Source: a virus
Taxonomy: Duplodnaviria > Heunggongvirae > Uroviricota > Caudoviricetes
IMG/VR virus record: IMGVR_UViG_2513237361_000013
Direction: 5' to 3' (one strand)
Length of the DNA stretch: 36,955 nt
Shown: one piece after another, positions 11,063 through 13,611 of the stretch
How positions within the stretch are numbered: position 1 is the stretch's first letter
How the letters are laid out: every line of letters begins with the position of its first letter
Program-made: the position numbers and the translations under genes
Notes under the pieces: model-generated
Database searches by the model: none
Told to the model about the DNA's origin: nothing
Seen by the model: only the letters and a program-made list of their open reading frames with translations

Positions 11063-12289
11063 ATGTCGGGGACTATAATAAAAATCAGAACAGGTGAAAA
11101 TGTTTTGTCAGCAACTATTCACCGCATTGAATGGCTGCTTGATACATTCCCTTCTGTCTGTTTGTCCTTTTCCGGAGGAAAGGACTCAACCGTACTCTTC
11201 CATCTTGTGGCGGATGTGGCCCGCAGGAAAAACCATCGTTTCTCTGTACTGTTCATTGACTGGGAAGCTCAGTACCAGTGCACCATTGAACATGTTCATA
11301 AGATGCGGGAAATGTACCGGGATGTGACAGATACCTTTTACTGGGTGGCCCTTCCCCTGACTACGGTAAACGGCGTCTCGCAGTTTCAGCCGGAGTGGAT
11401 ATGCTGGGAGCCAGGAGTGACCTGGGTTCGCCAGCCACCGGAAGAGGCCATTACAGACATGACGTATTTTCCCTTTTACCGGTATGCCATGACGTTTGAA
11501 GAATTTGTTCCGGCATTTTCTTCCTGGTTTGCCGGTAACCGGTGTGGAGTGGCAATACTGACTGGTGTCCGTGCTGATGAATCGCTCAATTGCTTTATGG
11601 GACTGGTATCTCAGCGCAAACTGAGATATGCAGATGATAAACCCTGGACCACAGCGTCGCCTGAAGGGTTTTATTACACCATGTATCCGTTATATGACTG
11701 GAAAGCCCGCGATATCTGGATATATAACGCCAGAACCTGTGCCATCTACAATCCTCTGTATGACCTGATGTACCGTGCCGGCGTGCCGTTACGCAACATG
11801 CGTGTCTGTGAACCTTTTGGTCCTGAACAGCGTAAGGGACTGTGGCTTTACCATGTTCTGGAGCCGGAAACCTGGGCCAGGATGTGTGAACGGGTGTCAG
11901 GGGCTGCCAGCGGGGCGCTTTATGCCAATGAGAGTGGTGCCTATTTTGCCCTGCGTAAGCGTATCACGAAGCCGCCTCATCATACCTGGCGTAGCTATGC
12001 GATGTTCCTGCTGGATGTGATGCCGGAAAGAACGGCAGAACATTACCGTAATAAAATTGCTGTCTACCTGCGCTGGTATCAGACGCGGGGCTTCCCGGAT
12101 GACATCCCGGATGAACAGGAGAATGACCTGGGGAGCCGGGATATCCTGTCCTGGCGACGTATCTGTAAGACACTCATAAAGAATGATTTCTGGTGCCGGA
12201 CCCTCTCCTTCAGTCCGAACAAACCCCGGCACTATGAACGTTATCTGCAGCGTATGAAAGAAAGAAGGAAGGAATGGGGGATTCTGTGA
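11063..12289 (+). CDS. PAPS-reductase-family PP-loop ATP pyrophosphatase-like protein (YbdN-like)
   Basis: 408 aa with the PP-loop motif SFSGGKDS near the N-terminus and several conserved Cys. It resembles E. coli YbdN-type proteins from memory. Confidence 0.8.
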   Translation: MSGTIIKIRTGENVLSATIHRIEWLLDTFPSVCLSFSGGKDSTVLFHLVADVARRKNHRFSVLFIDWEAQYQCTIEHVHKMREMYRDVTDTFYWVALPLTTVNGVSQFQPEWICWEPGVTWVRQPPEEAITDMTYFPFYRYAMTFEEFVPAFSSWFAGNRCGVAILTGVRADESLNCFMGLVSQRKLRYADDKPWTTASPEGFYYTMYPLYDWKARDIWIYNARTCAIYNPLYDLMYRAGVPLRNMRVCEPFGPEQRKGLWLYHVLEPETWARMCERVSGAASGALYANESGAYFALRKRITKPPHHTWRSYAMFLLDVMPERTAEHYRNKIAVYLRWYQTRGFPDDIPDEQENDLGSRDILSWRRICKTLIKNDFWCRTLSFSPNKPRHYERYLQRMKERRKEWGIL

Positions 12290-12927
12290 CAGCGGAGATA
12301 CTGGGTAACATGATTCGTCAGTATTTCAGTCAGGTACGAACTGAAGAAGAGACCATACAGGCTCTGAATCATCTGCGCAGGGTGCTTCATGAGGTCAGTC
12401 CTTTTGCACAGGAGCCTGTGGACTGTGTACTGTGGGTGAAAGCGGATGAGGTGGTGGCCAACGATTATAACCCCAATGTCATGGCACCGGGTGAGAAGAA
12501 ACTGCTGAAGCAGTCACTGGAAAAAGATGGTTTCACACAGCCAGTGGTGGTGTCAGAGGAGAAGGAGCATTATCTGGTCGTGGATGGTTTTCATCGTCAA
12601 TTACTGGGCAGGGAAGCAGATACGGGAAAACGTCTGAAGGGCTGGTTGCCAGTGACTTGTATTAATCCGGAAAGAAAGGGACAGGCCTCACGCATTGCTG
12701 CAACCATCCGACATAACCGGGCCAGGGGGAAACACCAGATAACCTCAATGTCTGACATTGTCAGGGACCTCTCGCGTCTGGGCTGGACAGATGAGCGTAT
12801 TGGCACAGAGTTGGGTATGGACCAGGATGAAGTGCTGAGACTGAAACAGATTAGTGGGCTGACGGAGCTGTTTCATGGAGAGGATTTCAGCCCTGCATGG
12901 ACTGTGTCGGATAAAACAAAAAGCTAA
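12274..12927 (+). CDS. ParB/Srx-fold DGxHR-type protein (YbdM-like)
   Basis: 217 aa with VVDGFHRQ (DGxHR-like) and HNRARGKHQ motifs. Its start overlaps the upstream gene by 16 nt, implying co-translation. Confidence 0.75.
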   Translation: MGDSVTAEILGNMIRQYFSQVRTEEETIQALNHLRRVLHEVSPFAQEPVDCVLWVKADEVVANDYNPNVMAPGEKKLLKQSLEKDGFTQPVVVSEEKEHYLVVDGFHRQLLGREADTGKRLKGWLPVTCINPERKGQASRIAATIRHNRARGKHQITSMSDIVRDLSRLGWTDERIGTELGMDQDEVLRLKQISGLTELFHGEDFSPAWTVSDKTKS

Positions 12928-12942
12928 AGGATACAGGATTAC

Positions 12943-13611
12943 ATGTTGACAGATATCACGGTTCTTATTCTAAATATTATAGAAAAATGGGGTGTGCAAG
13001 GAATATTGGGAATAGTTCTTGTTTTTTTAGCATATCGCTGGATTAATTCTGGTAATATTTATTTTATTTTTCTGTTTTTTTCAGGGGTAAGAAAGAAAAA
13101 CAGGCTGAAACATATCATGAATGAAAAACACACATCACCCGAAACCTATGCTCGGGTACTACTGGAATTAAGGCAGCAAGATAATATGTGGCTGACAGGG
13201 ATGCAGACGCCGACGCTTGCAAATATTGCTATGGAGTTAACAAAGCAAAATAATCTGCGCACGCGTTATTTTTATAACTGGAGGCGGTGGTTAACAGAAA
13301 ATAAAGGTGTCGTTGTTTTTGATGAGAAGAAATACAATAATGCACGAAAAGAACATTATGCAATGAGTTTTATCGGTATGTTAAATGCCTTGATAATAAG
13401 TCTGGAGATATATCTACGTTTTAAACTGTCTCTGGTATACATGCCTTATGTTGTGTTTGTTAATATCTTTATATTTATGGGGGTGATGGTTTTTATTTCA
13501 TGGGTTCCCGGGGTGAAGTTTACAGTAAAAATGAAATCTTATATAGAAAAGTATAATTCAGTACTCTTGTCAGAGTTGAGTAAGAAGCCTGGTGAAACCA
13601 GCTTAAATTAA
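12943..13611 (+). CDS. hypothetical membrane protein (AT-rich gene)
   Basis: 222 aa with an N-terminal hydrophobic helix GILGIVLVFLAYRWI and C-terminal helices. AGGA-like Shine-Dalgarno. Begins 16 nt after the YbdM-like stop. Confidence 0.5.
   Translation: MLTDITVLILNIIEKWGVQGILGIVLVFLAYRWINSGNIYFIFLFFSGVRKKNRLKHIMNEKHTSPETYARVLLELRQQDNMWLTGMQTPTLANIAMELTKQNNLRTRYFYNWRRWLTENKGVVVFDEKKYNNARKEHYAMSFIGMLNALIISLEIYLRFKLSLVYMPYVVFVNIFIFMGVMVFISWVPGVKFTVKMKSYIEKYNSVLLSELSKKPGETSLN

Follow-up and report, generated by a model that had tools for sequence, protein, structure and literature searches.

What does a pair of overlapping genes, one for a PP-loop enzyme and one for a ParB-like protein, do in the tail region of a prophage? 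The question is raised by a DNA stretch of 36,955 nucleotides (nt) from a Caudoviricetes virus (IMG/VR record IMGVR_UViG_2513237361_000013), hereafter the window, whose sequence is identical to part of assembly GCA_000208565.2. An original prediction, made from the sequence alone, had described a protein of the phosphoadenosine phosphosulfate (PAPS) reductase family and a ParB-like protein with a DGFHR motif, followed by a membrane protein, and had proposed the trio as a candidate DNA-modification or defence module. Judging by its sequence relatives, the window pair belongs to the named IbrA/IbrB family (YbdN/YbdM in Escherichia coli K-12), and its conserved unit is the pair alone, not the trio. 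We estimate at about 0.5 the probability that the pair is a regulatory two-protein module with ATP-dependent chemistry, which activates poorly expressed acquired surface-protein genes in trans.

The two open reading frames (ORFs), their coordinates and their motifs agree with the original description. The genes, here called ibrA and ibrB (Table 1), overlap by 16 nt; SFSGGKDS occupies residues 35-42 of IbrA and DGFHR residues 104-108 of IbrB. A strong AAGGAAGGA ribosome-binding site lies within the end of ibrA, ahead of the ibrB ATG, and ibrB is translationally coupled to ibrA through the overlap. Against close homologues, the ratio of nonsynonymous to synonymous substitution rates (dN/dS) is 0.07-0.13 for ibrA and 0.05-0.10 for ibrB; because these values are low, both are genuine genes under strong purifying selection and not chance ORFs.

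The family assignment comes from several sources. E. coli DNA about 90% identical to the pair is annotated in RefSeq as 'phosphoadenosine phosphosulfate reductase' followed by 'IbrB-like domain-containing protein', and the E. coli phage PhiR5_2 carries genes annotated IbrA and IbrB, its IbrA being 90.7% identical to the window protein in amino acids (aa). UniRef uses the label 'Co-activator of prophage gene expression IbrA', and the same co-activator wording recurs in RefSeq, SEED and phage records. The relationship to YbdN and YbdM, already suspected in the original prediction, holds at 58% and 56% identity, respectively, over the full length. Altogether the family comprises 508 clusters at 50% identity (E <= 1e-30) and ranges over bacteria, many phages and archaeal viruses, with IbrA proteins of enterobacteria and of environmental viral contigs still 47-55% identical. 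Homologues are found in 220 of 50,697 cultured phage records (Flavobacterium 90, Mycobacterium 60, Streptococcus 21), and there are 148 viral-contig matches. In E. coli, ibrAB is present at >=90% nt identity in about a third or more of complete genomes: 2354 of 5426 match a 6.3-kb query, mostly in its ibrAB part at 90-95% identity. Several species carry more than one pair, Edwardsiella anguillarum and Klebsiella grimontii having three paralogous pairs each, and dedicated regulators stand beside pairs, a LysR-type YbdO in 36 loci and an AraC-family protein at the window locus.

Linkage of the two genes was surveyed with one genome per species, which gave 79 genomic loci with 81 IbrA genes, and in 80 viral contigs. 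An ibrB lies directly downstream on the same strand in 78 of the 81 genomic cases, mostly with overlaps of -28 or -16 nt, the exceptions being a locus end and a disrupted gene. For 77 of the 80 viral IbrA genes an ibrB is found within 1 kb on the same strand, arranged as a tight A-to-B pair (30 contigs), as IbrB, a small gene and IbrA (41) or as IbrA, a gap or small gene and IbrB (6); the remaining three lack an IbrB-like ORF in the stretch examined, two of them at contig ends. The linkage is thus nearly obligate, and the lack of conserved linkage that the original prediction had named as part of its refutation was not seen. No third gene recurs in bacteria, the 44 genomic loci that are not of the ybdO type having heterogeneous, housekeeping neighbours, and no restriction, desulfurase, reader or effector gene recurs across the 79 genomic and 80 viral loci.

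The third member of the predicted trio is indeed an ORF for a putative membrane protein; its gene begins 15 nt past the ibrB stop (not 16, as first counted) behind an AGGA site, and it is not part of the conserved unit. Searches of Pfam, NCBIfam, PADLOC and PHROGs assign it to no family, and only six clusters, all Escherichia-like, were found among 5.8 billion proteins. The gene follows ibrB only in the Escherichia cassette lineage of the window; a gene with >=2 transmembrane segments follows ibrB at 0 of 66 genomic and 1 of 26 viral loci. A homologue occurs next to the solute-binding protein gene of the cassette but without ibrAB. The dN/dS of the membrane gene is 0.89 (on few substitutions), and its GC content is ~38-41% as against ~50% for ibrAB. 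The membrane gene is a lineage-specific passenger and not a component of the system. In another island (L002), a membrane protein encoded downstream proved unrelated to that of the window.

The domain calls for both proteins were confirmed by Pfam, PHROG and family profiles. IbrA matches Pfam PAPS_reduct (PF01507, 4.6e-16) and DUF3440 (PF11922, 2.2e-32), both above the gathering score, and phrog_2302 (1.2e-80); its N-terminal ~240 aa have the PAPS-reductase/FAD-synthase/CysD fold and its C-terminal part is the helical DUF3440. A search for an informative domain fusion among 150 family representatives was without success, the long proteins being PAPS_reduct plus DUF3440 with apparent gene-calling extensions. 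Conservation was judged in 40 family representatives, each <=52% identical to the window protein, in which R21, G39-K40-D41-S42, D66, E68, W115, W121, R170, E173, P209, D217, Y233, R247 and R277 are invariant. No cysteine is invariant among them, and C249 of the MRVCEPFG segment is replaced by D, N, A, G, S or Y. A CysH-type thiol mechanism and a DndC-type cysteine/Fe-S centre are therefore unlikely for IbrA, on the evidence of the alignment. The intact SGGKDS of the PP-loop indicates that IbrA uses ATP, and since all of the nearest folds form or act on adenylyl-phosphate or adenylyl-sulfate bonds, we infer that IbrA transfers an adenylyl group to a phosphate-type acceptor.

IbrB is recognized most clearly by phrog_2159 ('ParB-like partition protein', 2.4e-83). 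The match to Pfam ParB_N is weak (0.0058, below the curated cut-off), and in NCBIfam only nucleoid_noc responds (2.8e-4, 20 bits against a cut-off of 315); the IbrB family profile matches the N-terminal domains of ParB/Spo0J (4umk, 5e-4) and Noc (7ol9), and in phrog_498 'DNA methyltransferase' it is again the ParB portion that IbrB matches. IbrB carries the motifs NDYNPN, DGFHR, TIRHNRARGKH and LGMDQDEVLRLKQ. In an alignment of 37 non-redundant homologues, environmental viral ones included, N63-x-Y-N-P-N68, D104-G-x-H-R108 (H107 at 97%) and R146-H-N-R-A-R-G-x-H154 are invariant, and the helix-turn-helix (HTH)-like segment is mostly invariant too (L180-G-M, D185-E, L188-R, Q192, G195). Such uniformity across hosts points to a conserved biochemical partner or substrate. 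We saw no convincing parS-like palindromic site or island-bounding repeats in the sequence searched.

The domain pairing had been likened to DndC plus DndB of phosphorothioation systems. Beyond the level of domains this relationship was not upheld. With PADLOC models, IbrA matches DndC at 0.0026 over residues 24-49 only (25 residues, the PP-loop) and BrxP at 9.1e-7 over residues 30-96 only (65 of 779 profile positions), while at E <= 0.01 there was nothing for IbrB or the other island genes and no Ssp match; NCBIfam gave no DndB, DndC or DGQHR match for either protein. DndA/IscS, DndD and DndE genes are missing from the island, as predicted, and do not recur in the 79 genomic and 80 viral loci. 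Because the IbrA family has no invariant cysteine, Dnd-like sulfur chemistry is unlikely. Nor did profile searches place IbrA in a sulfate-assimilation or tRNA-thiolation clade, the outcome named in the original prediction as refuting it: the NCBIfam CysH, CysD, APS-reductase (adenosine phosphosulfate reductase) and TilS models reach 19-37 bits, with cut-offs of 94-413 (154-413 for the CysH, CysD and APS-reductase models). These profiles thus do not identify the pair as a phage-defence system or as a DNA-sulfur system of the Dnd type. Of the proposed module, DNA modification is possible without being a supported conclusion, and defence is unlikely.

Eib is expressed more strongly when ibrB is present, as reported by Sandt et al. 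2002 (cited in PMC7649339); with this activation published, and IbrA and IbrB named in RefSeq, UniRef and phage records, the homologues can no longer be called functionally uncharacterised, as they had been. In Shiga toxin-producing E. coli, ibrB adjoins perC and both are induced on cell adherence (PMC7649339). K-12 YbdO (CitR) represses ybdNM and has confirmed binding only at its own and the ybdNM promoters; on deletion of ybdO, ybdN rises by log2 5.5 and ybdM by 2.5, lrhA changes by -4.3 (Table 1 of PMC9068703), and the whole cys regulon (by 2-3), flagellar genes and fimC/fimI go up (PMC9068703). YbdNM may act in trans and so cause the indirect changes in the ybdO deletion, and induction of the cys regulon could reflect the using up of a sulfur or adenylyl-sulfate metabolite. 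The literature searched contained no mechanistic paper on IbrAB or YbdNM. In Salmonella Typhi, the genes tinR and tioA downstream of tcfABCD may be homologues of ibrB and ibrA; the cluster names obtained for them are generic. PMC10373206 confirms only the S. Typhi gene order around tcfABCD/tinR/tioA.

The genomic surroundings of the closest relatives (85-97% aa identity) add to this picture. In E. coli they adjoin F4/K88 fimbriae (on a plasmid), Pix-like fimbriae, Afa/Dr genes, an inverse autotransporter and an autotransporter, and a pair of the closest clade lies beside a K88-type (pef-like) operon on an IncFII Salmonella plasmid. These cases are not independent, and the adhesin link is a property of the mobile lineage of the window; it is consistent with the Eib phenotype.

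Taking the literature and the sequence features together, the regulatory module could work as follows. IbrB, with its ParB/Srx nucleotide-binding fold, its DGFHR and RHNRARG motifs and its HTH, would be the nucleic-acid-binding subunit; IbrA, made 1:1 with IbrB, would use ATP to adenylylate a phosphate-type acceptor, be it a nucleotide, DNA or IbrB itself; adenylylation would switch the IbrA-IbrB complex on, and the switched-on complex would alter the transcription of target genes. In the window, the module is carried by a mobile cassette that comprises an AraC regulator, the micro-ORF, ibrA, ibrB, the membrane ORF and the solute-binding protein and whose landing in the prophage inactivated the tail module; elsewhere, in E. 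coli and Salmonella, this cassette lineage travels together with operons for fimbriae and autotransporters. In the window strain the two proteins would be expected to form a complex, transfer adenylyl groups, bind DNA and have a regulatory output.

Several observations weigh against such a regulatory role. The pair occurs in virulent phages (S. thermophilus CHPC1148, Flavobacterium), where a 'prophage co-activator' makes little sense. A general fimbrial link, which we looked for and rejected, is absent outside the closest clade, a chaperone/usher gene lying within 10 kb at 0 of 35 ybdO-type and 5 of 44 other genomic loci; the window itself holds neither an eib gene nor an adhesin operon. The host-independent uniformity of the HTH is unusual for an operator-specific regulator and points to an enzyme complex instead; together with the 47-55% identity of IbrA between enterobacteria and environmental viral contigs, it fits a universal biochemical reaction better than the recognition of particular operators. 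The AlphaFold2 model of IbrB, built on 27 close homologues, has a predicted local distance difference test (pLDDT) score of 47.6 and was not used for a fold search. Lastly, the IbrA allele of the window, with R177C, may be enzymatically impaired.

This last point bears on the possibility that the window copy is a decaying remnant, a cassette stranded in a dead prophage, with no adhesin operon close by and with IbrA inactivated by R177C. Position 177 (codon at 11589-11591) is Arg in 168 of 172 homologues and Cys in the window allele alone; it is the second Arg of the G-x-R-x-x-E-S-x-x-R signature and is >=90% conserved even among the representatives <=52% identical to the window protein. The second change, P362L (codon at 12146-12148), meets a Pro in 146 of the 172 and a Leu in the window allele alone. 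The destroyed tail module and the absence of the full cassette from every one of the 5426 complete E. coli genomes also fit decay. On the other side, both frames are intact with their coupling signals preserved, pairwise dN/dS is low, and identical copies of the window IbrA protein are present in four independent assemblies or sequencing runs. We regard decay as unlikely.

Possible, though doubtful, is a DNA-modification module of epigenetic or anti-restriction use, in which IbrB would recruit the complex to DNA, perhaps nicking or opening the latter, IbrA would adenylylate a backbone phosphate or a base for substitution, and the effect on transcription would be secondary. The domain logic is like that of DndB plus DndC and DpdB plus DpdA (PMC12839542), IbrA falls in the PAPS-reductase clade that also holds DndC and BrxP, and ParB N-domains are repeatedly paired with DNA-modifying enzymes in phages, as in the phrog_498 proteins that IbrB matches; the prophage of the window has in addition a ParB_N gene overlapping a glycosyltransferase gene. 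Both proteins are extremely conserved, HTH included, and in phages, virulent as well as temperate, the pair is located in early or nin regions, with HNH, methyltransferase and recombination genes close by. However, the literature searched reports no modified base or backbone for the family, IbrA, having no invariant cysteine, is unlikely to transfer sulfur as DndC does, the DndC and BrxP matches are limited to the PP-loop, no desulfurase, restriction or reader gene recurs, and three paralogous pairs per genome, each with its own regulator, would be unusual for a modification enzyme. An anti-phage defence system, formed by the pair or by the trio and carried as a prophage moron, appears very improbable: the location in a moron hot spot, the domain-level resemblance to Dnd, BREX type 4 and Dpd components and a membrane protein that could be an effector are outweighed by the lack of a system-level or full-length PADLOC match and of a conserved effector or restriction partner, by a membrane gene that is unconserved and evolves almost neutrally, by the frequency of the pair in phages, virulent ones included (the 220 cultured records and 148 viral-contig matches), and by ybdNM, an orthologue in the core genome whose site is fixed across 35-36 enterobacterial species. 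The view of ibrA as an auxiliary metabolic gene for sulfur metabolism, encoding a PAPS/APS reductase or an ATP sulfurylase, with the ParB-like neighbour incidental, is largely refuted and hardly credible. The Pfam, PHROG and RefSeq names of IbrA, the fold matches to CysH and CysD and the rise of the cys regulon on ybdNM derepression (PMC9068703) speak for it, while the NCBIfam models stay far under cut-off (for example 35 against 254 bits), the catalytic cysteine is not conserved, the intact SGGKDS PP-loop indicates use of ATP, and IbrA has an obligate link to IbrB and an extra DUF3440 domain.

The viral loci show where phages keep the pair. Its neighbours there are NUMOD3/HNH, NinG, NinB, RusA, lambda P and ERF genes, that is, early or nin-type regions; copies in virulent phages likewise adjoin HNH, NinG, RusA and replication genes, and the S. 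thermophilus phage CHPC1148, itself virulent, carries the pair between its lysis and cro/replication modules. A third gene, here called X, stands between ibrB and ibrA in 20 of the 35 spaced viral loci that have an intervening ORF. X encodes a conserved protein of ~125-140 aa with the motifs NHQAW[IL]GHA.C and PED[IL]TR..W and the invariant residues E15, W58, N72, A75-W76, G78, E90, T93 and W97; it has no relatives in Pfam, PHROG or PDB. Kinship of X with IbrA or IbrB was considered and rejected, the proteins being unrelated by hhalign. The place of X is taken by the gene of a small GNAT acetyltransferase in at least four further viral loci.

A bolder reading, which we offer tentatively, is that IbrA-IbrB could be a new system of two subunits that adenylylates nucleic acids or nucleotides with the help of ATP, distinct from phosphorothioation and from known base modifications, in which a DNA mark or a nucleotide ligand would reprogram transcription. 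Phages would use it early, often with X as a third subunit, and in enterobacteria it would have been domesticated (ybdNM, ibrAB) to switch silent genes for surface structures. The IbrA core is cysteine-free and the DGxHR, RHNRARG and HTH segments of IbrB are invariant; the two proteins would act together in marking the DNA or making the ligand.

The coordinates of the pair and its surroundings are collected in Table 1.

Table 1. Features of the window around ibrA and ibrB, with examples of gene X from viral loci
Feature	Position	Strand	Remarks
Broken J remnant region	7206-8690	-	Island flank
Foreign island	8691..15319	.	~6.6 kb; replaces K, I and J codons 1-666 of a lambda/Rac-like prophage
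AraC-family regulator, YdeO/AppY/GadX type	9936..10667	+	243 aa; upstream member of the mobile cassette
Micro-ORF	10968..11027	+	18-19 codons, peptide M(M)GLWFVVWFATGWLHNYY*; ends 35 nt upstream of ibrA
ibrA	11063..12289	+	408 aa; predicted PP-loop ATP-pyrophosphatase-type enzyme; R177C and P362L in the window allele
ibrB	12274..12927	+	217 aa; ParB/Srx-like N-domain and C-terminal helix-turn-helix
Predicted membrane protein	12943..13611	+	222 aa; ~3-4 hydrophobic segments
Periplasmic solute-binding protein (SBP_bac_11)	14064..14828	-	254 aa; Pfam 1.1e-33; right end of the cassette
Intact lambda L gene region	15320-16018	-	Island flank
Gene X examples	L135:9613-9990; L128:9562-9954; L142:9595-9990		Viral loci

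That the pair lies in a foreign island within a prophage tail region, as had been proposed, was supported by tblastn with lambda tail proteins and by composition. Lambda H, M and L map to 18775-15323, L being 98% identical at 16018-15323, and J residues 667-1131 map to 8690-7212, while K, I and J residues 1-666 have no tblastn match in the window. Because the island has replaced part of the tail module, this module is broken and the prophage is defective. After the J remnant come the gene of the side tail fibre (5125-7209) and what is left of tfa (4417-4524). Elsewhere the prophage has the make-up of a Rac/lambda-like late region, containing Rz, a trkG-like gene and terminase, portal, coat and tail genes. 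The composition of the island is a mosaic, with flanking island genes at 36-41% GC against ~50% in ibrAB, and AT-rich edges.

Within the island, the AraC-family regulator matches Pfam HTH_18 (2.9e-14) and NCBIfam YdeO (5e-48, below the curated cut-off) and is 31% identical to an AppY-like gene at 3118-3867. The latter, a second AraC-family regulator on the minus strand, adjoins an omptin gene (1915-2868, plus strand; Pfam 2e-129); this omptin/AraC pair (1915-3867) is reminiscent of appY-ompT of the K-12 DLP12 region. The micro-ORF is rich in Trp and aromatic residues (MGLWFVVWFATGWLHNYY*) and is kept in five E. coli islands with unrelated upstream genes, with mostly synonymous or conservative changes; from these features it may be a leader or a small membrane peptide. 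An RNA element was considered for the conserved block before ibrA and set aside (-5.9 kcal/mol, no compensatory pairs), the micro-ORF fitting better, and a broad alignment of 45 ibrA upstream regions was uninformative. The solute-binding protein gene is convergent with the membrane gene and accompanies homologues of it with or without ibrAB; the cassette order AraC-IbrA-IbrB-membrane protein-solute-binding protein recurs in E. coli contigs.

Other genes of the prophage were recorded in passing. A ParB_N protein of 263 aa (31429-32220, minus strand; phrog_620, 1e-90; motif AGHGR) and a TET-associated glycosyltransferase of 317 aa (30504-31457, minus strand; Pfam TAGT 3.8e-35; phrog_842 'beta-glucosyl-HMC-alpha-glucosyltransferase', 7e-104) are encoded by genes that overlap by 29 nt just upstream of terS and terL (30504-32220). 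No TET/JBP gene is visible within the window, and 10 records of E. coli or Salmonella phages contain this gene pair at >=99% identity, annotated only as hypothetical and 'partitioning protein'. A trkH/trkG-like moron (32358-33584, minus strand; 408 aa; Pfam TrkH 2e-134, from profile position 41) is flanked by the Rz lysis gene (33952-34380) on one side and the ParB-like gene on the other, a trkG/Rz layout that resembles the K-12 Rac prophage. From 34000 to 36955 the GC content rises abruptly to ~57%; this part, which encodes a 453-aa DUF3560 protein (34688-36049, plus strand) and a 187-aa methyltransferase-like ORF (36097-36660, plus strand) resembling domains of giant phage/plasmid 'DNA methyltransferase' proteins, is probably a different mobile element.

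The window instance is an ordinary one, and the family is the more interesting object, being under strong constraint yet resting on one genetic study from 2002. With the chemistry of IbrAB known, the switching-on of some adhesin genes acquired by horizontal transfer would be explained and K-12 ybdNM would gain a function; a new modification of nucleic acids or nucleotides, employed by phages, might also come to light. The present analysis narrows the options: sulfur/cysteine chemistry is unlikely, the unit consists of two genes, and phages carry a third.

Compared with known enzymes of its fold, namely FAD synthase (FMN adenylyltransferase), CysD and the APS/PAPS reductases, IbrA is 13-21% identical; unlike them, it is without the catalytic cysteine tail, adds the ~170-aa helical DUF3440, for which there is no structural match, and has an obligate ParB-like partner. 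DndB/DndC and DpdB/DpdA also pair a DGxHR-type ParB/Srx protein with an ATP-using DNA-modification enzyme, and DndC is, as IbrA, PAPS-reductase-like with a PP-loop; in contrast to Dnd, the gene order in the window is reversed, IbrA carries DUF3440 in addition, and restriction genes are missing. BrxP of BREX type 4 and SspD, both from DNA-acting systems, have the PP-loop PAPS-reductase fold in common with IbrA, but their partner genes are absent from the window locus. With ParB/Spo0J and Noc, IbrB shares a ParB N-domain followed by an HTH. Canonical ParB clamps carry a GERR (GERRxR) CTP-binding motif and a C-terminal dimerisation domain, whereas IbrB has DGFHR at the aligned place, ends ~20 aa past the HTH without such a domain, and has an obligatory enzymatic partner. 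VirB and KorB are ParB-family nucleotide-switch DNA-binding proteins, and VirB is an anti-silencer of horizontally acquired virulence genes, which offers an analogy to IbrB.

The nearest systems are those of the family itself. IbrA/IbrB of strain ECOR-9 share the two-gene architecture, PAPS_reduct plus DUF3440 followed by an overlapping ParB-like/HTH gene, a likeness that is indirect, via annotated relatives, and like the window pair they are cargo of an island or prophage; the window differs in having no eib gene, in the two substitutions of its IbrA allele and in its cassette partners, an AraC regulator, the micro-ORF, the membrane ORF and the solute-binding protein. K-12 YbdN/YbdM (b0602/b0601) have the same gene order, overlap and motifs as the window pair. 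The K-12 genes, however, are a LysR-controlled core locus at the fixed site ahpCF-dsbG-ybdO-ybdNM-ybdL, syntenic in 35-36 enterobacterial species or loci, whereas the window pair is a mobile paralogue that stands beside an AraC-family gene.

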